Assembly: GCA_964394435.1 (NCBI GenBank)
Contig: CAYMXN010000001.1
Location: forward strand, 235,928-299,927
Source: an uncultured Candidatus Saccharibacteria bacterium
GTDB taxonomy: Bacteria; Patescibacteriota; Minisyncoccia; UBA6257; 1-14-0-10-44-23
Direction of reading: 5' to 3'
Length of the DNA: 64,000 bases
Shown: piece after piece, positions 3,949 through 53,104 of the stretch
Layout: each line of letters opens with the position of its first letter
Numbering within the stretch: the stretch's first letter is position 1
Translations under genes and position numbers: made by a program
Notes under the pieces: generated by a model
Databases searched by the model: none
Told to the model about the DNA's origin: nothing
The model's input: the letters and a program-made list of their open reading frames with translations, nothing else

Positions 3949-5052
3949 ATGAAATTATCACATTCAGCCATTAGCCTGGCGGTACTCGGAAGCGTTTTAT
4001 TCGCCCCTATCTCGTCTGCCCTGGCCCAGGAAGCGATCACCCAAGGAACGGCCCGCCTTACCTTTACTACGCTAACTAAAGCGGGATTTCCTGAACAAGA
4101 CGTGTTTATCGGTGGACCGACGAGCGCCAATCCAAACACCCTAAATGAACAGGTAGTCCGCGTGTTTGGCGCTGATGCGAAAAACCCGGTTAACCTTGTT
4201 AAAACTATTTTCCGCAGCGAACAACCAGCGCCGCACGACTTAGCGCGCACGGGAGGTACTCCACTTGGGCCATTTGCACGCGGCAAAACACTCGATACCG
4301 CACTCCAGGCTTGGCTCAATGCGAAGGGCTCTGCCTCGTATACTATTCTCGGAGGTGGTTCTTCGCTCAATGCTGCGTTTGAAAACTTGATGCCGAACGC
4401 GCTTTATTCGCTTTGGTGCAACCGGTACACCGTCGGAGCTGCTGACTTTGTCGTCTCCCCTTGTCTACGCGGCGACGGATCGATGATTACCTTTACGACT
4501 GATCCAGGAGGAACTGCTACACTCTCGGCCTCATTTCCAACTGTAGCTCCGACTGGAAACTCAACGAAGTCTGTTTTTGCTTTGGTTTATCACAGCAATG
4601 GAAAAACCAATGGAAGCACTCCAGGCGAGTACGGCGTAACTGCGCACACCCACCTTATCGCCTTCTTGCCAACGAAGTCTGAAAATGCCGAGCAGCAGAA
4701 GTCGGACAGCGCACTCGCCCAAGCGGCGTGTATCGCCAACGCAGGAGAGGCGCGCGACTTAGCAATCTTAGAGACGTTTAAAAAGTACCACCTCGCACTC
4801 GAAGACGCCCTCCTCGCCCGTACTAAAGCTCTGAAGGCGGCGTGGAACATCACGACTAACACTGCCGAACGTAAGCTGGCGGTAAAAGCTGCGGCGAGCG
4901 CGTTTAATGACGCGGTGCGTAAGTCATGGAAAGATTTGAGTGAGAAGCGAAATGGAGCGTGGAAGACGTTCCGCTCTGAACAGAAAAAGTGTAATGCGGT
5001 TGAAAAATACGACAGCGAGTTTATCAACGAAGCATTTGACGCGAAGCTTTAA
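3949..5052 (+). CDS. Secreted hypothetical protein
   Basis: N-terminal signal peptide (MKLSHSAISLAVLGSVLFAPISSALAQEA). Followed by a strong terminator at 5057-5092. Confidence 0.7.
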   Translation: MKLSHSAISLAVLGSVLFAPISSALAQEAITQGTARLTFTTLTKAGFPEQDVFIGGPTSANPNTLNEQVVRVFGADAKNPVNLVKTIFRSEQPAPHDLARTGGTPLGPFARGKTLDTALQAWLNAKGSASYTILGGGSSLNAAFENLMPNALYSLWCNRYTVGAADFVVSPCLRGDGSMITFTTDPGGTATLSASFPTVAPTGNSTKSVFALVYHSNGKTNGSTPGEYGVTAHTHLIAFLPTKSENAEQQKSDSALAQAACIANAGEARDLAILETFKKYHLALEDALLARTKALKAAWNITTNTAERKLAVKAAASAFNDAVRKSWKDLSEKRNGAWKTFRSEQKKCNAVEKYDSEFINEAFDAKL

Positions 5053-5056
5053 CAAC

Positions 5057-5092
5057 AAAAAAACCGCTCTCATCTCGAGAGCGGTTTTTTTA
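5057..5092. terminator. Bidirectional intrinsic terminator
   Basis: aaaaaaaccgctctc-atctc-gagagcggttttttt; A-run and T-run flank an 8-bp GC stem between convergent genes. Confidence 0.8.
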
Positions 5093-5093
5093 T

Positions 5094-5630
5094 TTATCGT
5101 ACGATGGTTGTTAAGTCGATTTCACTTAGGCGGTTAAACGGTTCCGGCTGACTCTCTTCTTCGGCAACCGTACGTACGCGTGCGATTACTACATTATCCT
5201 GACGAATCACACTGAACTGTTCGCCAATTCCCGCGAACCAACACTGGGCGTAACCAAGTGAGGTCGCTCCTTTTGGCAGCACATCATCAGCTGGGGCGGC
5301 AACTTCTACGCACGAACCCTGATAGACACCGAGGCGATATGGCAAAACCGTAATTTGTCTGCCGTCTGGGCGATACACACCAGTGAGTTGAATACGAACC
5401 TTGGTATTTGGCGTGCCGTAGGCTCCTTCGGCTTGCGGCTCAAACAGCCACTGCACCTTATCAACACGATAGAGCTCACTGGTCGCTACGGTCGTTGAGG
5501 CGCTCTCTTGCTTTTGCTCTACTTCGCCGCCTATCGCGCCATCTTTTGGTCCGGAAAAAACTCCGTACAATACCAACGCAACACCAACTATCAGAATCAA
5601 CGGTACGAGATTGATAATAATCTTTTTCAT
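5094..5630 (-). CDS. Membrane-anchored hypothetical protein
   Basis: N-terminal TM helix (IINLVPLILIVGVALVLYGVF). Tightly follows the thioredoxin-like gene. Confidence 0.65.
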   Translation of the reverse strand: MKKIIINLVPLILIVGVALVLYGVFSGPKDGAIGGEVEQKQESASTTVATSELYRVDKVQWLFEPQAEGAYGTPNTKVRIQLTGVYRPDGRQITVLPYRLGVYQGSCVEVAAPADDVLPKGATSLGYAQCWFAGIGEQFSVIRQDNVVIARVRTVAEEESQPEPFNRLSEIDLTTIVR

Positions 5631-5631
5631 A

Positions 5632-5889
5632 CTATTTTACTCCAGCCCAATTTTTAACGTCTTCATAGCTCACCTCTCCACAAATCGTACTTCCGGTTTC
5701 GGTATTGATATAAAACGGAACGCCGCCGCACTTACCCTGATCATAGCTCTCCATTTTCTTTGCATTCTCTTCGTTGTGCCAAACCTCAAACTTTTCTACT
5801 TTTACTCCCGTCTCTTTTTCGAGTTGCTCGATGAGTGGCTGCATACGTACGCAGTGCGGGCACTCTTTTCCATAAAATTCTAATAACAT
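5632..5889 (-). CDS. Thioredoxin-fold protein (CPHC active site)
   Basis: 85 aa with EFYGKECPHCVRM motif, typical of small thioredoxin/glutaredoxin-like proteins. Confidence 0.75.
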   Translation of the reverse strand: MLLEFYGKECPHCVRMQPLIEQLEKETGVKVEKFEVWHNEENAKKMESYDQGKCGGVPFYINTETGSTICGEVSYEDVKNWAGVK

Positions 5890-5989
5890 ATATGACTAAG
5901 ATATCATATAGTTTTTTGATTGCAAGATTCTTTTGGCTATTTTAAAAAATAAAACGCCCCAACCAATCGCTTGGTGGGGGCGGAAGAAC

Positions 5990-43194: not shown

Positions 43195-43440
43195 TTACCA
43201 ATCCTTCATCGCAACTTTCGCCTTGCGCTTAATTTTTTGATACAAACGTACTGCTTTTTCTTCGACCCGCGGAGAAACGACCCGTAAAATTTCTCGGCCA
43301 AGGATCCGATACTGACCGCCAACCTTATTAGCTTTAATTACGCCTTTCTTAAGAAGACGTTTGATCGTACTCGTACTCACTTTTAGAAGCTCCTTAGTTT
43401 CGTCGCTCGTGTATACGGTATTTGGGTCGATACTGCTCAT
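43195..43440 (-). CDS. Excisionase-family helix-turn-helix DNA-binding protein
   Basis: Trimmed to the ATG at 43440 (the listed ORF starts at a TTG). VYTSDETKELLKVSTSTIKRLLKKGVIKANKVGGQYRI matches the excisionase/MerR-like HTH pattern. TTGACA-N17-TAAAAT ends about 8 nt before the ATG, so the mRNA may be leaderless. Confidence 0.7.
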   Translation of the reverse strand: MSSIDPNTVYTSDETKELLKVSTSTIKRLLKKGVIKANKVGGQYRILGREILRVVSPRVEEKAVRLYQKIKRKAKVAMKDW

Positions 43441-43500
43441 ATCGCCTATTTTAGACGAAGTGTCAAAAGGTGTCAAAAAGGTTCATGGGGATAATCGGTA

Positions 43501-43539
43501 ATAAAAAGAGCGGACGATGTATCTCTACATTGTCCGCTC
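43501..43539 (-). terminator. Strong intrinsic terminator after the Nudix-like gene
   Basis: gagcggac...gtccgctc long stem followed by tttttatt on the minus strand. A second hairpin lies at 43543-43566. Confidence 0.75.
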
Positions 43540-43570
43540 ATCGCCCGCCTGTTGGCGGACGGGTGCGAAA

Positions 43571-44263
43571 CTAGTGACCGAAGCGGTAACCGTAACCCTG
43601 TGCACGCGCCCGATGGGCCGCCAACATCACCTCTACAAACGTGTGGCTCATGTCGTACGACCACTCTCCCTCGATCGGGAGCGTATCGAGAGAGTACCAC
43701 TCGAGGCCACTCGCCTCGGCCTGGTTGTCTCCGCTCTTCACCCCGAACACGACCTGCTGGTCGTGCGTACCCGCGTACGTCACGATGTGGGTCGAGGCGT
43801 AGCTGTGCTTGCCCGGGTCGTGGGAGAATCCGTTGCGATTACGACCGTCCATCTGAGGCGCGTACTGGCGCATACAGACCGGATGGGCCCAACCGAGCGG
43901 CAGCTCGACGTCGATGCCGAGATCGCTCTTGTAGTGGAACTTCAAGGCGTCCTCGATGGACTGGTAAAGTCCGACCACGCCGCCGACGATGGCGAGCTTG
44001 CCAGGAAAGCGCCCCGTCCGACGACGGATGACACCGCCGAGCAACTGACCCGTCTTCGGGTCCTGCTTGACGATGACGCCGTCGACACAGGGCACGGCAC
44101 CGAGCTTCGTACGCAAGGGCCAGACCGCTCCCGAGACCCGCCCGTCCGGCTGGACGAGCTGATCGAGATCCGAACGCTGGGCGAGGATCTCGGCGAGTTG
44201 CCGAGTGCTGTAGCCCACCAGCCGATCCGCAAGGTCGGCAGTCGAATCAGTCCTTTCGGACAT
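43571..44263 (-). CDS. GC-rich Nudix-fold, DUF4916-like protein (degenerate Nudix box)
   Basis: Trimmed to MSERTDSTADL (GGAGG SD 6 nt upstream). AVPCVDGVIV...GKLAIVGGVVGLYQSIEDALKFHYKSDLGI follows the Nudix strand-loop-helix layout without the full GX5EX7REUXEEXGU box. 42/60 G+C at 43981-44040. Confidence 0.65.
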   Translation of the reverse strand: MSERTDSTADLADRLVGYSTRQLAEILAQRSDLDQLVQPDGRVSGAVWPLRTKLGAVPCVDGVIVKQDPKTGQLLGGVIRRRTGRFPGKLAIVGGVVGLYQSIEDALKFHYKSDLGIDVELPLGWAHPVCMRQYAPQMDGRNRNGFSHDPGKHSYASTHIVTYAGTHDQQVVFGVKSGDNQAEASGLEWYSLDTLPIEGEWSYDMSHTFVEVMLAAHRARAQGYGYRFGH

Positions 44264-44314
44264 CGGAAACCTCCGGGAAATACCCTCCGCAACCGATTGT
44301 TGTGGATTAGATAT

Positions 44315-44343
44315 GTTATAGCATAAAATATGCCCAAAGTCAA
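44315..44343 (-). promoter_or_regulatory. Promoter TTGACT-N17-TGcTATAAC with GCATA-TTT-TATGC palindrome in the spacer
   Basis: Minus strand reads gaTTGACTttggGCATAtttTATGCTATAACatat. Confidence 0.65.
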
Positions 44344-44396
44344 TCACCTGCTGTTGCGCCCACAAATCAAAAGCCCGCCAGCTGGCGGACTTTTGA

Positions 44397-46631
44397 TTAC
44401 TTCGTGCTTACTCCCAAGGCTTCAAAGACTGGCATAAATTGAGCGGCGTTCGGATTGCCTAGGAAGAAGTCTGGGACGTGAGCTAAGAACTGCCGTAGGT
44501 ATGTAGCTGCTTCAGCATTTTGGCCAGTAAAAGCCAGTACGACACCGAGCTTGAGCTCGGACTCGTAATCAGCTTCGTTGTACTTGAGTGCGAGACGATA
44601 TAACCTCGCCGCTTCTTCATAATTCTCTGCGTCACCATAATACCCGGCAACAATACGAGCCTCTGGTGCAGTGTTTGGGTTGCGCCCCCTGCTCTTTGCT
44701 AGTTCGATCTCTTCAAATCCTTTTTTCTGATCGCCAACTTCAAATGAAAGCAACCCATAGAAAAAGTGCGGGTCAGCAGCTACCGGATCAAGGTCGATAG
44801 CGTTTTGCATTTCTTTGAGCGCCGCTTTTTTATCTCCCTGGAGCAAGCGAAGCTTTGAGAGCATATAATACGTCTGCTGACGATTGGATGAGATACTTAT
44901 CGCCTTACGAATATTTTCCTCGATCAACTTGAAATACTTTTTATCGAGGTTTTGAAAAATCATTCCGGCATCGGCGCGTACAATGTACAGATAGTAGTTA
45001 TTCGGATCAGCCTGGATAGCCTTATCAAACTGCGCGAGTGCGTAGTCAACAACTGCTATCGTATTTGAAATTTCCTGCTGCTGCACCATCTGCGACAACG
45101 CACTTACCATGCTCTGACTGATCTCGTGCTGATATGGCTCGTTGAGTGCGATTCCTTTTTTATACGACTCGATCGCCTTATCTGGCATTCGATTTACGAA
45201 ATAGTTCAGCCCCCAGAACTGGAGGTGGTTTGCATATACAATTCTACTATTCACTACTACTCCGATGAGCAACCCGGCAACCACTACGCCTACTACGCAG
45301 CCGCCAAAGACCTTCTTTGTTGTAGTAAACGAACCTACCTCGCTGGTTGCACGATGCCGATCTGGAACATACTGGTCGACAAGCGCAATAAACACAATGA
45401 GCATCAAGTACGAGCCAAACGCATCAAAGACGAAAAAGTTTTGAGCGAGATAAGCGACTAGGGCGCCGAGTGCGAATGGGCGGAGCTCCAGAGGCGCGAA
45501 GCGAATAATCGTTCGGATAAGCAAGCCAATAAGTAGTACGTAGGCGAGAAAACCGACTACGCCACTTGTCGCTAAAATCTCAAGATATACGTTGTGCGGC
45601 TTATCCCAGTACGTTTCAGCAAAGCCAGTACGAAGCAAAACTGGGTTATAACGCTGATCAAATGGGTATTTAAAGTTTTCCCAACCATATCCCAGTAGTG
45701 GCTTTGTTTTAATAATATCGATTGCGGTTTTCCAGGCGATTAAACGGTTACCGACGGTCGCATCAAAACTTGAGATTTGAGCTAAGCGATTGAGCCCTGG
45801 GACCTTTTGCCATACAGCTGCGCTGCGGGTAGCAAAAAATACTCCACCAAAAATTATCATCGCGACAATACCGAGTAGCGGGATGTTTTTTACTATTGAT
45901 GTGCGCACTGTAAATGGCTTGAGCTTACGAAGAGCAACATACCCAAGCGTACTCATTGCGCCCAATGTCAAACCAACCAAAGCACCACGCGTCTGTCCGA
46001 GTAAGATAACAACGGCTAGGGTTGCGATGCCAAACCATAGCCAAACTCTTACCCCTTTTCGCTGGGTCGTACGAGCAAGCCAAGCTCCAATAAACATATT
46101 AAACATAAGATATGGAGCTAAAAATGCTGGGTTGCCCATAAAACTACCTGGGCGTTGAGCATCACTCCCCTCAAACACCGTTGGTGCGATTTTTTGGATG
46201 ATCGCAAAAAAGCCAACGATAAAGGCTAAGCCAAATAGATAGCTCATAAATGAGCGCCAGTTAATACGGCGACGCATCGCGACTAATACCAAGAAGTATG
46301 CGTAAAAGTGTAGGAGTGAGAAAATACCAATCGCGCGCTCTTGAATTGACCAAAAACTTCGATGCAAATTAACTCCCGTCAAACTAGCGAGCGCGAGCAT
46401 CCCCAAAAATAAACCTAGGGCGAGTACTAACTTACTTGCCCGAGGACGGTACTCTTTGCGAAATACTGCGAGCCCAATCCAAGCAGCTACTGTTAGCTCA
46501 ACTAAAATATGAAAGCCAAATACCTTTAAGGTTACGAGTGGATAAATGAGGTTATTAATATAGAGCAAAATGGCGAGCGGGCAGATATACAATCCCCAGC
46601 GCACGATTTTCGATAATACGTCTGTGTTCAT
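44397..46631 (-). CDS. O-antigen ligase (Wzy_C)-like polytopic membrane protein with C-terminal TPR repeats
   Basis: 744 aa: about 12 TM helices in the first ~450 aa, then repeated TPR-like helices (AIESYKKGIALNEP..., AIQADPNNYY..., ALKEMQNAIDLDP...). Confidence 0.75.
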   Translation of the reverse strand: MNTDVLSKIVRWGLYICPLAILLYINNLIYPLVTLKVFGFHILVELTVAAWIGLAVFRKEYRPRASKLVLALGLFLGMLALASLTGVNLHRSFWSIQERAIGIFSLLHFYAYFLVLVAMRRRINWRSFMSYLFGLAFIVGFFAIIQKIAPTVFEGSDAQRPGSFMGNPAFLAPYLMFNMFIGAWLARTTQRKGVRVWLWFGIATLAVVILLGQTRGALVGLTLGAMSTLGYVALRKLKPFTVRTSIVKNIPLLGIVAMIIFGGVFFATRSAAVWQKVPGLNRLAQISSFDATVGNRLIAWKTAIDIIKTKPLLGYGWENFKYPFDQRYNPVLLRTGFAETYWDKPHNVYLEILATSGVVGFLAYVLLIGLLIRTIIRFAPLELRPFALGALVAYLAQNFFVFDAFGSYLMLIVFIALVDQYVPDRHRATSEVGSFTTTKKVFGGCVVGVVVAGLLIGVVVNSRIVYANHLQFWGLNYFVNRMPDKAIESYKKGIALNEPYQHEISQSMVSALSQMVQQQEISNTIAVVDYALAQFDKAIQADPNNYYLYIVRADAGMIFQNLDKKYFKLIEENIRKAISISSNRQQTYYMLSKLRLLQGDKKAALKEMQNAIDLDPVAADPHFFYGLLSFEVGDQKKGFEEIELAKSRGRNPNTAPEARIVAGYYGDAENYEEAARLYRLALKYNEADYESELKLGVVLAFTGQNAEAATYLRQFLAHVPDFFLGNPNAAQFMPVFEALGVSTK

Positions 46632-46764
46632 ATAGCTTTGATACTACCAAGTTTGCTCCCCTTTTTCCACCAAAGCAAACGCCCCCTTGCGGGGGCGTTT
46701 GCCGGTTTACTCCACTACACAAATTGCTTTATGTAGTTCGAGCTATCCCATGCTGACGTTACTA

Positions 46765-49700
46765 CTATTCGTAGCTGACGTTGGCGATGGTGAACGGAAC
46801 AACCGTTGACTCGATCGAGATGTTGCTCGTCGTGCCATCGTTGAACGTGATACCCGAGGCAGCGTTGATAAGCGCTGAGAGGGAGTCAGAGGTGTTGGAA
46901 CCGTTGTAGAAGCTTGAGGAGTTCACACGAACCTTAGCAGCCTTCGTGGTGCCTGGGTCAACTGTGTATGACGGGTTAAACGTCACAGAACAGGAGTTAC
47001 CAGCACCTGGAGTGCAAGTCTGTTGAGCTGCACTGCCGAGAGCTGAGTTGGTGTTGGCGTCAAGAAGGTCAACCGTGAAAGCGGTCGAACCGTTGCTGAC
47101 AGCCTGACCAGAGAACTTGACCGTTACAGTACCAACTACAGCCTGGTAGGCCGAGTCAGCCGTAAAGTTCAAGGTTGCAAGGTCGTCAACCGCTACACGA
47201 GTACGGCCAGTGGATGAACCAAGGACCGCGCTTGAGAGCGAGAGCTTCGTGCGGTAAACCGTGACAGTGTTACCTGAAGCAGAACCAGACTTCGTAGCAG
47301 ACGTGTTCGAGTCCTTACCATACGCCGTAACGAAGTACGTCGGCTGGGAGAGACCGAATGCGTGGGTGCTGTTTGAAGTGGCACCACCAGAGCTGTACGT
47401 CGCAACATCACCCTTTACCACGAGGTTAACCGTACCGTTTTTCGGAACGATAACTGGGTTGAGGCTGAAGGTCGCCGTAGCAACTGAACTGCCAGACATC
47501 GTCATCGAGATAGGACCAGCTACCTGAGTAGAGCCGTTCCAGAGCGTTACGTTCTGGAATGAAGCGATACCAGCTGAACCGTTACCTACCGTGTCGGTGA
47601 GCGAGATGTCGGTTACGCGGATGTCCTCAACGTTGTCCGCGGTAAGGCGGATCGTTAAGAGGGCGTTGCCGGTTGAACCCATTACTACGTACTTAGAAGG
47701 CGCCGTGTCGGAGCCAGTAGCGACCGTAAGGGTTGGACCAGACGAGATTACGATACTCTGACCGTTAACTGCACCTGGGAAGGTAATCGCCGAGTTCGAG
47801 ATCGAACCCAAAGCGCTCCAACCGATGATGTCGATAACTGCAGAGTGAGTCGCAGCCGTCGAGCTGGTCAAGATGTCGGCGTAAACGTCAATCGTTACTG
47901 AACCACCCTGTGGAACAGTGACTGGGGTCGCAGCGCTGAACGCGAGCGAGGTTTCCGCATCACTGATCGTTGGGCGGGTCGTTCCGAACTGAGTCGAACC
48001 GATCATAACCTTCATGTTCTGCATGTCGAAGTTCGCGTTGCTGTCCTTGTCAAAGGTAAGCGACGAAAGGGTCGCACCCTGGGCTGAAGAAGCAGTTACG
48101 ATGAACGAAGCGACACGAGCGTTGTTGCTACCAGCGATAAACGTTGGTGAGTTAAACGCTGAGTTTACAGCAACCGTGAGCGGAGTCGTCGTAACAGCGA
48201 GCGTCGCGCCGGTTACAGAACCGGATGAAGCTGACTGGAACGAGGTCTGACCCTCAAGGTTTGTGCTGTTACCTGGCAAGCTGCCCTGGAGCGTCGTGAC
48301 GTCAGCACCCGAGAGGATGTCAACGACGAGCGAGACTACACGGACAGTGTTGGCCGGAACAATGTAGTTAATTGGGGATCCGGACGTACCGAAGTGGCAA
48401 GTAATCGAGCCGGAAGCGAGCGTACACTGACCGGAGGAAGAACCACCAGCAACAGTGTTGATCGCGTTACCAACCTGACCACCTACGTCATCGATAAGGC
48501 GGATGTTTTGGATGTCGTCCGTCGGAGCAGTAGCCCAGTTAGTACCGGAACCAACCTGCGAGATGGTCGCATCTAAGAACTTAACTTTAACTGCCTCACC
48601 AGCTGCATAAATGCGAGCGCGGAGAAGAGTTACGCCAGAGGCACCTACTGGAATTGGAGCAGTTGGGGTGTCTGAAGCGAGAGATACCGTGATCGAACCG
48701 GTGTTGATCGTAATCGTTGTCTGGTTCGTTGAGGTGATGGAGACCGTGATACCAGTGTTGTACTGGGTGTCGATCGCCGTGACCTTAAACGGCTGGAGCA
48801 ATGAGAACGTCAAAGTGCGGTTAGGGCTGCCGTTGATGTCAGCGAAAAGCTGAATCGTCGAGTTACCCGTGTTGAGCACGATACCCTCTGGGAAGTTGAA
48901 GTTGGTGTTCGTCGCGCCAGCTGCGAGAGTCGCAACCTGCGTGCCGTTAACCAAAAGCCTCAAATTCTGAACATCGCCTGGGTTAGCTGAACCGACCATG
49001 CTGAACTGCATGTTGGTGAGCTTGACCTTGCTGTTAGAAACGTTCGCAGTCCAAGATGAAACGAGGACCGAGGCCGTACCAGCATCAACTGTTGAACCTA
49101 CCGCGTTAGCAGTAAGAGTCATCGTTGAAAGTGATGGGTTGGAAACTGAAGTGACAGTCAAGGAAGCGGTGGAAACTGGAAGACCAGTAACCGTCGCACC
49201 CGTCGCCGTTACACCCTTAAGCTGCCAAGCGAGCGTGTTGCCAGCTGAAGCAGATGAAGAGAGGTCAAGGCGGAGCTCACCAGTCCAAGTCTGACCAGCT
49301 GGGATCATCAAGTTGAGACCCGAGAAGGTTGCGACTGAGTTGGTGAGTGACTGGAACTGAGCAACAACTTCACCGGTCGCCGCGTTGGCGAGGTAAAGGT
49401 TGTTGATGTTGCTGTCAGATACGACACCAACCTTGTTGAATGTAAGGCCAGTAACCGTTACTGCAGCGCCAGCTGGAGCGGTGAAAGCGAAGCGGCCAGC
49501 GTTGATCTGACCAGCTCCGGCGATTGCCGAGCCAATTGGGTTGTTACCAGCGAGGGTAACGTTAAGAGTGGAACCGGCTGGGAGTGAAACGCCCGTGCCA
49601 GTACCAGTGCCAGTGTTCACAGAGCCAGTGAAGGCTGCGCGAGACTTTGCACCGAAGTAACCAGAAGCTGGGGTGATGCCAGCAGAAGTCTGCCAGGCCA

Positions 49701-50034
49701 TAACCGCCGCCTTGGTGATGCTACCGAAGTAGCCCGTTGGGGAAACACTGAAGTGACCCTTTGACGCAAGAACCTGCTGGAGGCAAGTAACATCAGCGCC
49801 CTTTGAGCCCACGGTGAGGTCGCGGGTGAAGGAACATGCTGAGTTGCCGCCAGTCGAGTTGTTGAGCTGGGACTGCAGGTTAGCCAACGTTGCGAGCAAC
49901 GCGTTGATCTGAGTCTGGATGTCTGAAGCTGATTGCGCACCGGCAACCGCTACAAATGAACCAAAACCAGAGAGCGTAGCCGCAGTGGTTACCGTCAGGA
50001 TTACTGAGGCAACCTTGTTGCTAAATTTACTCAT
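46765..50034 (-). CDS. Large cell-surface protein: signal/anchor, PG_binding_1-like domain, long Thr/Ser/Ala/Gly/Val-rich beta-repeat region
   Basis: 1089 aa. LTVGSKGADVTCLQQVLASKGHFSVSPTGYFGSITKAAVMAWQ is a peptidoglycan-binding repeat, followed by a TGTGTGTG linker and repetitive T/S-rich segments. Confidence 0.8.
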   Translation of the reverse strand: MSKFSNKVASVILTVTTAATLSGFGSFVAVAGAQSASDIQTQINALLATLANLQSQLNNSTGGNSACSFTRDLTVGSKGADVTCLQQVLASKGHFSVSPTGYFGSITKAAVMAWQTSAGITPASGYFGAKSRAAFTGSVNTGTGTGTGVSLPAGSTLNVTLAGNNPIGSAIAGAGQINAGRFAFTAPAGAAVTVTGLTFNKVGVVSDSNINNLYLANAATGEVVAQFQSLTNSVATFSGLNLMIPAGQTWTGELRLDLSSSASAGNTLAWQLKGVTATGATVTGLPVSTASLTVTSVSNPSLSTMTLTANAVGSTVDAGTASVLVSSWTANVSNSKVKLTNMQFSMVGSANPGDVQNLRLLVNGTQVATLAAGATNTNFNFPEGIVLNTGNSTIQLFADINGSPNRTLTFSLLQPFKVTAIDTQYNTGITVSITSTNQTTITINTGSITVSLASDTPTAPIPVGASGVTLLRARIYAAGEAVKVKFLDATISQVGSGTNWATAPTDDIQNIRLIDDVGGQVGNAINTVAGGSSSGQCTLASGSITCHFGTSGSPINYIVPANTVRVVSLVVDILSGADVTTLQGSLPGNSTNLEGQTSFQSASSGSVTGATLAVTTTPLTVAVNSAFNSPTFIAGSNNARVASFIVTASSAQGATLSSLTFDKDSNANFDMQNMKVMIGSTQFGTTRPTISDAETSLAFSAATPVTVPQGGSVTIDVYADILTSSTAATHSAVIDIIGWSALGSISNSAITFPGAVNGQSIVISSGPTLTVATGSDTAPSKYVVMGSTGNALLTIRLTADNVEDIRVTDISLTDTVGNGSAGIASFQNVTLWNGSTQVAGPISMTMSGSSVATATFSLNPVIVPKNGTVNLVVKGDVATYSSGGATSNSTHAFGLSQPTYFVTAYGKDSNTSATKSGSASGNTVTVYRTKLSLSSAVLGSSTGRTRVAVDDLATLNFTADSAYQAVVGTVTVKFSGQAVSNGSTAFTVDLLDANTNSALGSAAQQTCTPGAGNSCSVTFNPSYTVDPGTTKAAKVRVNSSSFYNGSNTSDSLSALINAASGITFNDGTTSNISIESTVVPFTIANVSYE

Positions 50035-50570
50035 TGATTTGTTTTTCGTAGAAACTTAGTTAAATTCTTTGTAATTAATGTGTGGTTGTTCCGGGAAATC
50101 ACCCCCTCTTTTGGCTCCTTCGCTTACCCGCCACACGTGACGGATAAAAGGATCGACCGCTACAAAAGCTTAAGGATGACTTTAGTAACTTTGTTGAGCT
50201 CTCTTACTTTCTTTTACTCCCGATAAAAGAAAAGAGCTTCGCACAAATGCGAAGCTCTTTTCTAGATTGGAAGTAATACGCTAAACGCAACTAAAATAAA
50301 CCCGCGGCTTGGCGCACAGACCTTTTATATAGAAAGCCTACATAAAAGCACGGCCAAACCGGTTGCGTATACCGTATTACCCCCACTAGACCAAGCCTCA
50401 CACTCGGGCTAATGAACGTACTTACCTAACAGAAACAGTATATCAAATAACGGAGAAATTAGCAATACATGTGGATAAATCCGTCAAGAAGGCGAAGTTA
50501 ACCTCATACACTGCTCATAAGGTATAACGAGCAGGAATCAAATCTATTACACCCCTCCCCCTGGGCAAAA

Positions 50571-51239
50571 CTAGACCCCTCCTAGGGCGTAAAAATTGGA
50601 TGGACCGCCATTACCCTGACGCGTCAATTTGCCGGTTTCACAAAGGTACTTAAGGTCGTAACGGATAGTTCGCTCGCTCACACCCGGCAGCCCGGCAATA
50701 ATGTCTTTGAGTTGCAACTTTCGCTCTGCCGACTTCTGAATCATTGCCACGATCGCTAGCTGCCGATTAAGCGCTGACTGACTCGCCTCGCCTGTACTCA
50801 CCTGAACATCTGGCTTACTTATGATTGCCGGAATGCGCTGTTCTGATTGCCTGATTGGACTCGCCGCCTGCCTGATTGCCATTAACTCACGGGTTGGGCT
50901 TTTCTCAAGCGGCTTTGCCGAAAAGATGGATTCGATACTACCCGATGGTAAGACCATTTCCAACTTCTGAATCTCGCCCGCAAGAAGCTCAAGTTCGCGC
51001 GTGATAATCTTGGCGTTGACCGGCTCGATCTCGTAAACACTTTTGCCGAGCGAGACTAGTGAGTCGATCGCCTCAATCGTACCAAGGGTGAGCTCGGTGT
51101 TTTTATACGAAACATTCTCCAGCAAGTGGTACGCGAGCACCTCAAGACGGCGGCGGAGTTCAAATCGACGAACGTATGCGGCAAGACGAAGTACTGCGTA
51201 GGAGATTTCTCTGGATTTTTGCCTAATGAATTGATTCAT
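50571..51239 (-). CDS. Putative winged-helix (DeoR/HTH_11-like) transcriptional regulator
   Basis: C-terminal LQLKDIIAGLPGVSERTIRYDLKYLCETGKLTRQG HTH. Start set at MNQFIRQK; could be 51281. Confidence 0.5.
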   Translation of the reverse strand: MNQFIRQKSREISYAVLRLAAYVRRFELRRRLEVLAYHLLENVSYKNTELTLGTIEAIDSLVSLGKSVYEIEPVNAKIITRELELLAGEIQKLEMVLPSGSIESIFSAKPLEKSPTRELMAIRQAASPIRQSEQRIPAIISKPDVQVSTGEASQSALNRQLAIVAMIQKSAERKLQLKDIIAGLPGVSERTIRYDLKYLCETGKLTRQGNGGPSNFYALGGV

Positions 51240-51282
51240 ACTGTTGCCGATATCATATGCCAGATAGTCTAGGCAAGTCAAA

Positions 51283-51316: not shown

Positions 51317-53104
51317 TTATTCGACTGTCGCCCTAATGCGCCTGATTCCAGCTCCGACCGCCTCCTCTTTGACTATCTTGAACTTGCCGATTACCGCTGT
51401 GTGGTCCACGTGCGGTCCACCGCAAAACTCCTTACTAAATGATTCCGGAATCGTGTGTCCGACGTAGTACACTTTTACTTTTGCCGGATACTTTTGCTTA
51501 AAGAAGTATAACGCCCCAGTCTTTTCCGCATCCTCCTTTGCCATCTCGACAAATCCTACCGGCAAATCTTTAGCTACAACCCCATTTACGATATCCTCCA
51601 CCTTCTTAATCTCCTCCGGAGTGAGCTTGCGCGGAAATGAGAAGTCAAAACGCATACGCTCCGCAGTAATGTCACTACCCGCCTGATGCACCTCCTGGCC
51701 GAGCACCATACGCAGCGCCTGTTGAGTTAAGTGTGTGGCGGTGTGTAATCGTGTTACCTTTTTCAGCTCTTCTTCATTAGCAGCTTTGAGCTCACCGGTG
51801 TCTAATAACAACCCGTGACCGCCAAACTTCTTTTCCGCTCCGGCGCGAGATATCTCTTGGTGCTTTTTAAACTCCTTTTCGAAATCAGCAACGCTTACTC
51901 CTTTGAGCACCTCTGGTGCCATCTCTTTCATGAGTTCAAAGTTAAGCCCGAAAGTTGAGTTGATTAAAAACGCCTCTTCCACACTCAACGTCTGGTGCTT
52001 CTTAAGCTCCTTAAGCCCATTAGCAACTACTTTTTCAAACTTTTCTTGCTCCTCTAAAAGCACTGTCATAATCTCCGGCTTAGTTATTTCCGGATAAGTA
52101 GTGCTAAATTTTTCTACTACTACTGGAACAAGTTGCTCAAACAACCCGCCATGGATGTCATATCGGACTTTGTAGGCAAGGATACGGCGAATGAGACGGC
52201 GCAAGATATATCCCGCCTCTTTGTTGGCTGGGCGGACACCGTCAGCAATCAAAAAGATACTAGCGCGCATATGATCAGCGATTACCTTCTTCTCTTTTTC
52301 AGGAAGCTGTGGCGCGAGCTGACTAATTGCCGAAAGAATGCCTGTGAATAAGTCGGTCTGGTAGATGTTTTCTACGCCCTGTAAGACGGTTGTTAAGCGC
52401 TCAAACCCCGCTCCAGTATCAATACCCGGAAATGGCAACGGCTTAAGCTCACCCTTGCCGGCGATAAGCGACTCTTTGGAAACATTTGAGTAGTACTGAT
52501 TAAATACCACGTTCCATACCTCAACCCCCTTGCCTTGTTTTGCCAGATCTTCGGTCGGTGCGACATAGATCTCGGTTGTTGGTCCGCACGGCCCCTCGTT
52601 GCCAGTTGGCCCCCAGAAGTTATCCTCCATACCAAAGCGACGAATCCGCTCTGCCGGAATACCAATCTCTTTGTGCCAGATATCATAGGACTCGGCATCA
52701 AATGGTACTGCCACATTACCCGTAAACACCGTGACGTACATCCTTGCCGGATTTATACCAAGCTCTTCGGTCAGTAAGCGATACGCGAAATGAATAGCCT
52801 CTTTTTTAAAATAGCCACCAAACGAGAAGTTGCCGAGCATCTCAAAAAACGTCAGGTGGGTGTTATCCCCAACCTCCTCAATATCTCCGGTACGGAAACA
52901 CTTCTGAATTGAAGCGGTACTCTTTGCACCAAAGTCAGTTTGCGCATCAAGCTCGCCAGTATAGTACTTTTTAAACTGCTGCATACCGGCAGTGGTTAAG
53001 AGTACTGACGGGTCAGACGGGACGAGCGATGACGAAGCAATAGTCGCGTGACCGTTACGCTTGAAAAACTCGAGGAATTTTTTGCGAATTTGTTCTGAAG
53101 TCAT
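51317..53104 (-). CDS. alaS: Alanine--tRNA ligase, short form lacking the C-Ala domain
   Basis: 595 aa with a canonical N-terminus (MTSEQIRKKFLEFFKRNGH), editing-domain HTATHL and CGGPHV motifs, and an end at ...GIRRIRATVE. Confidence 0.9.
   Translation of the reverse strand: MTSEQIRKKFLEFFKRNGHATIASSSLVPSDPSVLLTTAGMQQFKKYYTGELDAQTDFGAKSTASIQKCFRTGDIEEVGDNTHLTFFEMLGNFSFGGYFKKEAIHFAYRLLTEELGINPARMYVTVFTGNVAVPFDAESYDIWHKEIGIPAERIRRFGMEDNFWGPTGNEGPCGPTTEIYVAPTEDLAKQGKGVEVWNVVFNQYYSNVSKESLIAGKGELKPLPFPGIDTGAGFERLTTVLQGVENIYQTDLFTGILSAISQLAPQLPEKEKKVIADHMRASIFLIADGVRPANKEAGYILRRLIRRILAYKVRYDIHGGLFEQLVPVVVEKFSTTYPEITKPEIMTVLLEEQEKFEKVVANGLKELKKHQTLSVEEAFLINSTFGLNFELMKEMAPEVLKGVSVADFEKEFKKHQEISRAGAEKKFGGHGLLLDTGELKAANEEELKKVTRLHTATHLTQQALRMVLGQEVHQAGSDITAERMRFDFSFPRKLTPEEIKKVEDIVNGVVAKDLPVGFVEMAKEDAEKTGALYFFKQKYPAKVKVYYVGHTIPESFSKEFCGGPHVDHTAVIGKFKIVKEEAVGAGIRRIRATVE

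Follow-up and report, generated by a model that had tools for sequence, protein, structure and literature searches.

We analysed a stretch of 64,000 nucleotides (nt) from an uncultured Candidatus Saccharibacteria bacterium (assembly GCA_964394435.1, contig CAYMXN010000001.1; hereafter the window), focusing on two adjacent genes that encode a large secreted protein with a PG_binding_1 domain and a membrane enzyme that joins a Wzy_C domain to an array of tetratricopeptide repeats (TPRs). The first product, of 1089 amino acids (aa), carries the label BIG in this report; the second, of 744 aa, is referred to as the enzyme. Both open reading frames (ORFs) were confirmed as a first-pass annotation had described them, and both lie on the minus strand, where the gene for BIG is followed, after a spacer of 133 nt, by the gene for the enzyme. 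The pair and its parts are located as follows.

46765..50034, minus strand: BIG gene (1089 aa), encoding a secreted, wall-anchored surface protein with multiple immunoglobulin (Ig)-like domains, a candidate surface-layer (S-layer) protein and the proposed acceptor
49645..49800, minus strand: PG_binding_1 domain of BIG (aa 79-130; Pfam E = 9e-10, 39 bits against a cut-off of 23)
49579..49635, minus strand: disordered Thr/Gly-rich linker of BIG (aa ~134-152), a candidate O-glycosylation site (predicted local distance difference test score, pLDDT, <50 at aa 140-152)
46768..49569, minus strand: Ig-like array of BIG (aa 156-1089), with ~8 beta-sandwich domains, from AlphaFold2 secondary structure, mostly at pLDDT >90
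46675..46702, minus strand: perfect GC-rich stem-loop of 12 bp immediately 3' of the BIG stop codon, from direct reading of the sequence
44397..46631, minus strand: Wzy_C/TPR enzyme gene (744 aa)
45222..46631, minus strand: membrane domain of the enzyme (aa 1-470), a WaaL fold with 13 transmembrane helices
45591..45830, minus strand: large extracytoplasmic loop of the enzyme (aa 268-347), the putative active site
44400..45221, minus strand: C-terminal TPR array of the enzyme (aa 471-744, ~8 repeats), predicted external, matched by Pfam TPR families

Architecture of BIG and of the enzyme

BIG begins with a Sec-type signal peptide (aa 1-35), and its PG_binding_1 domain is preceded by this peptide and then by a long helix (aa 36-59). 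The AlphaFold2 model (overall pLDDT 88) places these elements in the order disordered signal peptide, helix, helical peptidoglycan (PG)-binding domain, disordered linker and ~8 Ig-like domains, with the helices at aa 80-139 predicted at pLDDT >90. The 106-kDa protein is 27% Ser plus Thr (Thr 13.7% and Ser 13.3%, compared with 5.0% and 5.6% in the other genes of the window), contains 8.3% charged residues and three pairs of cysteines, and has an isoelectric point of ~5.2. The first-pass annotation was thus right that BIG is Thr/Ser-rich and secreted and carries a PG_binding_1 domain, but not that it is a low-complexity Ser/Thr protein, since it is well folded and conserved along its full length; for the same reasons, we rejected the idea that BIG is mucin-like. 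Foldseek searches of the PDB matched BIG to generic Ig-like arrays only (PrgB, alpha2-macroglobulin and integrin legs). The Bacteroidetes-type O-glycosylation motif D-S/T-A/I/L/V/M/T occurs only 4 times in BIG, and N-X-S/T occurs 23 times, approximately as expected from composition.

A word-indexed search recovered more than 400 BIG homologs with 40-65% identity across 1060-1150 aa, and at E <= 1e-30 the superfamily comprises 365 cluster representatives (50% identity), with long forms of 1050-1320 aa and short forms of 620-790 aa that match the C-terminal half. The linker is hypervariable yet always a low-complexity stretch of Thr, Gly, Ala, Pro and Ser, 23-55 residues long, in 77 of 77 aligned homologs (T 18%, G 16%, A 15%, P 13%, S 10%). 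Taken together, the signal peptide, the PG_binding_1 domain, the Ig-like array, the composition and the strong 3' stem-loop all fit an S-layer protein. This make-up is consistent with the earlier suggestion of an S-layer-like, wall-anchored protein, and the sequence and the predicted structure suggest that BIG may form the main surface coat or S-layer. At some related loci, a second, shorter BIG-like paralog lies 3' of the enzyme gene (L081 2473-4836, L082 3014-5377, also L123-L126).

The Wzy_C domain of the enzyme (Pfam PF04932) spans aa 201-365 with E = 2e-21 and 76.8 bits against a gathering cut-off of 31.7, and Pfam TPR families cover aa ~474-741, or ~270 aa. In the structure model (pLDDT 94, predicted template-modelling score 0.91), the membrane domain adopts a polytopic WaaL-like fold, which is also reached by a profile match to the PDB, with WaaL, a lipid A-core ligase, as the nearest solved structure. 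A single-sequence search of the PDB with the membrane domain gave no match, such that WaaL was reached by profile only. In its TPR part, the enzyme is similar to OGT and SPY (SPINDLY), whose TPR domains bind substrate. According to the positive-inside rule, loop charges put the N-terminus of the enzyme inside and the large loop at aa 268-347 outside, while a positively charged segment after helix 12, followed by a 13th helix, takes the TPR array outside. Model and loop charges thus both predict an extracytoplasmic TPR array on the same side as the catalytic loop, a placement in favour of the first-pass suggestion that the repeats could recognise a protein substrate.

Conservation within the enzyme follows this topology. 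The large outer loop is its most conserved segment (mean column conservation 0.64 compared with 0.50 for the transmembrane core), and R282, R296, G314, G316, D343 and H346 within it are invariant or nearly so. The residues of the membrane part that are at least 90% conserved (R91, R99, R160, N167, R282, R296, G314, G316, D343, H346, F402 and D403) each sit in a predicted outer loop. The TPR array is conserved to the same degree as the transmembrane core and contains a non-canonical conserved motif, S581-P582-x-R584-Q585-x3-Y589. On the evidence of the family match, the predicted fold and the conserved Arg and His residues predicted to face outward, the enzyme is a member of the Wzy_C/WaaL-fold family of lipid-linked glycan transferases.

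Conservation of the pair and its surroundings

The first-pass annotation had named loss of the gene pair in relatives as an observation that would speak against its proposal, and the pair held when its conservation was examined in both directions. Starting from BIG, an alignment was run against one genome per species and yielded 80 loci, 69 of which had at least 600 nt of downstream sequence. In 45 of these 69 loci, BIG is followed at less than 1 kb, on the same strand, by a Wzy_C homolog, which has the full Wzy_C-plus-TPR architecture in 38 of the 45, and the enzyme is found within 10 kb of BIG in 2 further loci. The pair is intact at every one of the 17 loci where BIG shares at least 45% identity with the window protein, and losses are concentrated among the most distant BIG homologs. 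Starting from the enzyme, an alignment of the closer enzyme set was run against metagenomes and yielded 80 loci (27-42% identity), 64 with at least 400 nt of upstream sequence; BIG is directly upstream on the same strand in 52 of these and adjacent but fragmentary in 3 more (~55/64). The named homologs and all related loci belong to Patescibacteria of the Paceibacteria type, including Jorgensen-, Harrison-, Lipton- and Wolfebacteria. Because synteny holds both ways, these data show that BIG and the enzyme are functionally linked, and the two probably form a conserved, dedicated unit.

Only one other gene travels with the pair. A gene for a DeoR-type helix-turn-helix (HTH) protein is the most conserved neighbour of BIG, with a homolog upstream in 57 of 80 loci (median distance 457 nt), and synteny retains just this gene, BIG and the enzyme (49 loci). 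These three persist over more than 100 loci, down to 27-40% identity, while other neighbours are not conserved. The conserved core can therefore be described as a three-gene surface module of Paceibacteria (Patescibacteria/candidate phyla radiation, CPR) that consists of a candidate DeoR-type regulator, BIG and the WaaL-fold enzyme with its external TPR array. The upstream part of this module is arranged as follows.

50571..51281, minus strand: DeoR-type HTH protein (236 aa), with a C-terminal HTH_DeoR match at aa 173-225 (E = 2e-6)
50035..50570, minus strand: unusually long leader/intergenic region (536 nt) upstream of BIG, with a promoter-like site at 50465..50437 and a hairpin followed by a T-run at ~50262..50229

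The DeoR-type protein is a candidate regulator of the surface module or of the BIG gene; its N-terminal part had no match in the PDB, Pfam or NCBIfam. The leader signals are consensus matches and direct readings of the sequence, the hairpin there is perfect, and no Rfam family matches the region 50035..50570. Further upstream, the alanyl-tRNA synthetase gene (window 51317..53104) is short, at 595 aa.

The spacer between BIG and the enzyme gene folds with a free energy (dG) of -52.6 kcal/mol (z = -6.0 relative to shuffled controls). A stem-loop with dG of -18 kcal/mol or lower occurs at the same place in 70 of 70 related loci, compared with 16 of 70 for a coding control (median best dG -27.8 and -15.4 kcal/mol, respectively), and across loci L001-L080 its position is conserved while its sequence is not. 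This element is probably a terminator or a 3' stabiliser that sets the enzyme gene apart from a structural gene with high expression, and its strength would fit a very highly expressed BIG and a less expressed enzyme gene.

On the other side of the pair lies a glycan-assembly locus, with two small genes between it and the enzyme.

43571..44365, minus strand: 264-aa ORF inside a GC-rich island, with M35 as its likely start
43195..43476, minus strand: HTH_17 protein at the glycan-locus boundary (Pfam E = 5e-10), with a counterpart in this position in the close relative L161
24938..43172, unstranded: variable glycan-assembly locus, the likely donor pathway in the window genome, outside the conserved core

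The glycan locus encodes a Bac_transf phosphoglycosyltransferase, expected to initiate synthesis, two Wzx-like flippases, five or six glycosyltransferases (GT2/GT4/GT1), three epimerase/dehydratases, a DegT aminotransferase, methyltransferases and a 2-oxoglutarate (2OG) oxygenase. The locus is therefore real, as had been noted earlier, but the enzyme does not immediately adjoin it, since the 264-aa ORF and the HTH_17 gene intervene. Nor does the suggestion that BIG is decorated by the upstream cluster as part of one module survive in that form, because the cluster is not conserved with the pair: no gene of the glycan locus recurs in more than 9 of the 80 BIG loci, and we accordingly rejected its inclusion in that module. 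Downstream of the pair, 144 ORFs were surveyed in 41 loci; glycosyltransferases, epimerases and additional Wzy_C genes were each present at ~7 of these loci. Beyond the closest relative, a glycan locus recurs in roughly one-fifth of the loci. The closest relative (enzyme 92% identical in protein) shows the same order of enzyme, GC-rich gene, HTH_17 gene and glycan locus, but its glycan locus has a different content, with two DegT genes, a NUDIX gene and an NTP transferase, and encodes a flippase that shares only 74% identity at the DNA level. The adjacent glycan locus is thus a lineage-specific, variable add-on. Since no other Wzy_C protein or polytopic polymerase candidate was found in the window, and no match to the LCP family among the 39 ORFs scanned against Pfam, no second enzyme is visible that could act on the acceptor side for the flipped glycan.

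The GC-rich island spans ~850 nt (window 43500-44400) at 60-66% GC, compared with a background of 43-47%. Its 264-aa ORF had no match in Pfam, NCBIfam or the PDB and is likely a foreign gene; L161 retains both island and protein at this position, and its public annotation places the gene on the opposite strand, probably wrongly.

Several related loci carry additional genes of the same kinds. Extra TPR-less Wzy_C paralogs of 420-630 aa flank BIG in several Paceibacteria loci, downstream of the pair in L004, L005, L017, L018, L027 and L044 and upstream in L012, L016, L019, L029 and L030, and distant CPR lineages contain tandem arrays of 3-4 Wzy_C/TPR paralogs that are not beside BIG (L144 3239-13065; L160 1841-8539). 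At L139, a 476-aa membrane protein (4528-5958), whose N-terminus is PMT/ArnT-like by eye only, precedes a Wzy_C/TPR gene, and a 980-aa Ser/Thr-rich secreted protein follows. A small opposite-strand gene cluster after the pair contains an extracytoplasmic function (ECF) sigma factor in 17-18 of 41 loci (L025, L026, L032, L036, L037, L039, L043, L046, L066 and others), and published data place a similar ECF sigma gene after a highly expressed 692-aa peptidoglycan-binding-domain protein of Ca. Yanofskyibacterium.

A proposed role in glycosylation of the surface protein

We propose that the enzyme may be a dedicated O-oligosaccharyltransferase for BIG as the major surface or S-layer protein, a proposal that we judge equally likely to prove right or wrong. 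The conservation of the enzyme alongside variable donor genes gives the pattern of a ligase or oligosaccharyltransferase rather than of a repeat-unit polymerase, and recognition of a protein acceptor fits because the external TPR array is conserved as strongly as the catalytic core. The enzyme gene also adjoins that of its putative target, BIG, in 45 of 69 and ~55 of 64 loci, as in dedicated O-oligosaccharyltransferase subtypes; genes for such enzymes tend to adjoin their target genes (PMC3643930). A Wzy_C enzyme with TPRs beside S-layer glycan loci, as put forward in the first-pass annotation, has documented precedent in WsfB, the Wzy_C enzyme of Paenibacillus alvei S-layer glycosylation, which carries a TPR motif, and in WsaB of Geobacillus, alongside which a separate TPR protein (WsaA) is encoded (PMC2943079). 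With respect to BIG, three Paceibacteria have PG-binding-domain proteins of similar predicted structure among the products of their five most highly expressed genes for secreted proteins (PMC10936435), and an S-layer role has been predicted for Patescibacteria proteins in two size classes, 1131-1274 aa and 643-727 aa (bioRxiv 10.1101/2024.05.28.596244).

In the proposed mechanism, Sec would export BIG, the N-terminal PG_binding_1 domain would hold it on the cell's own peptidoglycan, and the ~8 Ig-like domains would be displayed as the main surface coat. The strain-variable locus would make an undecaprenyl-diphosphate (Und-PP)-linked oligosaccharide, which the Wzx-type flippases would move outward. 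The external TPR array of the enzyme may then hold BIG while the WaaL-like active site (R160, R282, R296, H346 and D403) transfers the glycan en bloc to Ser or Thr residues of BIG, most likely in the disordered Thr/Gly/Pro/Ser linker that follows the wall-binding domain. Finally, the strong stem-loop between the genes may keep expression of the enzyme much below that of BIG.

Several observations weigh against this proposal. The Wzy_C family includes lipid A-core ligases, repeat-unit polymerases and protein O-oligosaccharyltransferases, the acceptor of a Wzy_C/WaaL-fold enzyme is not assignable from its sequence, and sequence by itself does not separate an O-oligosaccharyltransferase from another Und-PP-glycan ligase or from a polymerase. 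PglL_A and Wzy_C_2, the Pfam families typical of PglL-type enzymes, had no match in the enzyme at E <= 0.01, the TPR array occupying the C-terminal external position where Wzy_C_2 would be, and the best NCBIfam match, PEP_O_lig_1, falls far under its cut-off. TPR domains occur also in polysaccharide export scaffolds. For BIG, a testable candidate glycoprotein by virtue of its conserved enzyme partner, there is no direct evidence of a glycan, and its place among the highly expressed proteins and S-layer candidates was assigned by architecture and length class rather than by sequence comparison. Thr/Pro/Gly linkers are common in unglycosylated proteins, and the Thr-rich linker is likewise present in BIG homologs at loci without a neighbouring enzyme; the linker is therefore not tied to adjacency, and we dropped it as a discriminator of enzyme presence. 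Lastly, 22 of 69 BIG loci have no neighbouring enzyme, and no consistent gene or polytopic protein that might serve as a substitute lipid-linked-sugar transferase was found downstream of BIG in these loci.

The main rival explanation is that the enzyme does not act on BIG but serves as ligase or polymerase for a glycopolymer of the cell wall or bound to the membrane, with the polymer helping to anchor or organise the surface layer; its position beside BIG would then be like that of Bacillus S-layer genes beside wall-polymer modification genes. The presence of polymerases and lipid-directed ligases in the Wzy_C family and WaaL as the nearest solved structure are in keeping with this explanation, as is a window glycan locus with Wzx flippases and no other polymerase candidate, and the extra TPR-less Wzy_C paralogs at several loci would suggest a polymerase-plus-ligase set. 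However, repeat-unit polymerases normally reside in, and co-vary with, the glycan locus, while this enzyme stays with BIG as the glycan genes change, and no Wzz-type chain-length regulator was found in the window. In addition, BIG has a direct PG-binding domain of its own and, to our knowledge, no lipid A-core acceptor is expected in these bacteria. We consider a glycopolymer role unlikely but deserving of serious weight, given also that TPR domains are found in polysaccharide export and assembly proteins (works cited in PMC2943079).

It is distinctly unlikely, in our view, that the enzyme is a general O-oligosaccharyltransferase for many secreted proteins, like PglL in Neisseria and Burkholderia, with BIG merely its most abundant substrate. 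General systems use Wzy_C enzymes and target low-complexity Ser/Ala/Pro-rich stretches (PMC12645811, PMC9239064), and both the 22 BIG loci without an adjacent enzyme and the arrays of 3-4 Wzy_C/TPR paralogs away from BIG in distant lineages would agree with such a role, but the very tight two-way synteny within the orthologous group (~55/64) is typical of dedicated pairs such as PilO-PilA. Highly improbable is the idea that the two proteins have no biochemical connection and that their genes are neighbours solely because envelope genes are co-regulated or inherited together. Small CPR genomes do have compact, conserved gene orders, and the strong stem-loop between the genes makes separate transcription possible; against this, only the DeoR gene, BIG and the enzyme persist over such a large and diverged set of loci, and extra Wzy_C paralogs repeatedly gather around BIG. 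With these alternatives considered, an O-glycosylation role for the enzyme appears to be the most economical reading, one that we hold with about even confidence.

Whether this role extends to a class-wide, dedicated S-layer glycosylation device in Paceibacteria, in which a WaaL-fold transferase captures the major Ig-like protein through an eight-repeat external TPR array and adds strain-variable glycans, is a more tentative matter, which we rate as somewhat short of even. If true, it would be the first defined envelope-biogenesis module of these episymbionts and an independently arisen bacterial counterpart of the TPR-containing O-mannosyltransferases with which eukaryotes modify Ig-like cadherin domains, and a variable glycan coat on a conserved protein scaffold could determine recognition by hosts or phages. 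The surface of Patescibacteria mediates host attachment, yet its components are almost unknown and few members have been cultured. The module predicts that the main surface protein is a glycoprotein with a strain-varying glycan, which offers targets for metaproteomics and for existing co-cultures, and it would also provide a compact enzyme-plus-acceptor pair for glyco-engineering and a case for how a TPR array selects the acceptor of a WaaL-type enzyme.

Comparison with known systems

A surface protein with an adjacent Wzy_C-type transferase is a known kind of arrangement, as in PilO-PilA and in the S-layer glycosylation clusters of Firmicutes; what is new here is its occurrence in a poorly known phylum and a previously uncharacterised WaaL-fold/TPR fusion. 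Within Patescibacteria, PG-binding proteins and proteins predicted to form S-layers resemble BIG in combining a signal peptide, a PG-binding domain and Ig-like domains. A literature search for glycosylation or for a Wzy_C/TPR neighbour linked to such proteins found nothing, and neither is mentioned in PMC10936435 or in bioRxiv 10.1101/2024.05.28.596244. The two size classes of the preprint (1131-1274 and 643-727 aa) correspond to those of the BIG superfamily (1050-1320 and 620-790 aa), a match of lengths rather than of sequences.

The eukaryotic O-mannosyltransferases TMTC1-4 act on Ig-like cadherin domains. They share the design of the enzyme, namely a polytopic transferase that uses lipid-linked sugar and carries C-terminal, non-cytoplasmic TPRs (PMC7801869). 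Unlike the enzyme, they belong to the PMT clan rather than to the WaaL/Wzy_C group and transfer a monosaccharide rather than a glycan en bloc, such that the likeness is one of analogy only.

WaaL of Cupriavidus metallidurans (PDB 7TPG/7TPJ) is 15-16% identical to the enzyme, which adds a 13th helix and the TPR domain. PglS is similar in having 13 transmembrane helices and a C-terminal periplasmic domain, and its R159, R271/R278, H324 and E379 parallel R160, R282/R296, H346 and D403 of the enzyme in spacing (PMC12800693), a positional analogy rather than an alignment; the equivalence of enzyme residues to the catalytic residues of WaaL and PglS is likewise by spacing only. In proteobacterial pairs (PilO/TfpO-PilA, PglS-ComP and TfpM-pilin), a gene for a WaaL-fold Wzy_C enzyme directly follows that of its single substrate, the place that BIG would take here (PMC3643930, PMC9829042). 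Unlike in the PilO, PglS and TfpM pairs, the putative target is a 106-kDa Ig-like array instead of a pilin, and a TPR array replaces Wzy_C_2.

The slg systems of Geobacillus stearothermophilus (SgsE, WsaA/WsaB, WsaP) and Paenibacillus alvei (SpaA, WsfB, WsfP) (PMC2943079) differ from the present locus in several ways. The wall anchor here is a PG_binding_1 domain; no homology between BIG and either SgsE or SpaA was detectable; at ~270 aa, the TPR array is long, WsaB and WsfB having been compared by description rather than by sequence; the conserved unit is the enzyme with its putative target, the glycan locus being variable and often elsewhere; and export relies on Wzx-type flippases, unlike the ABC transporter of G. 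stearothermophilus. Like the slg systems, the locus belongs to a monoderm-type envelope and pairs a surface-layer protein, as BIG would be, with a Wzy_C-domain transferase. It also shares with them a TPR element, fused to the enzyme as in WsfB rather than encoded next door as in WsaA, and an initiating phosphoglycosyltransferase within a sugar-nucleotide and glycosyltransferase locus. All slg gene classes are represented in the window, namely a surface-protein gene with a putative S-layer role, a Wzy_C transferase, an initiating phosphoglycosyltransferase, glycosyltransferases and export, but the glycan locus that supplies several of them is not conserved with the pair.

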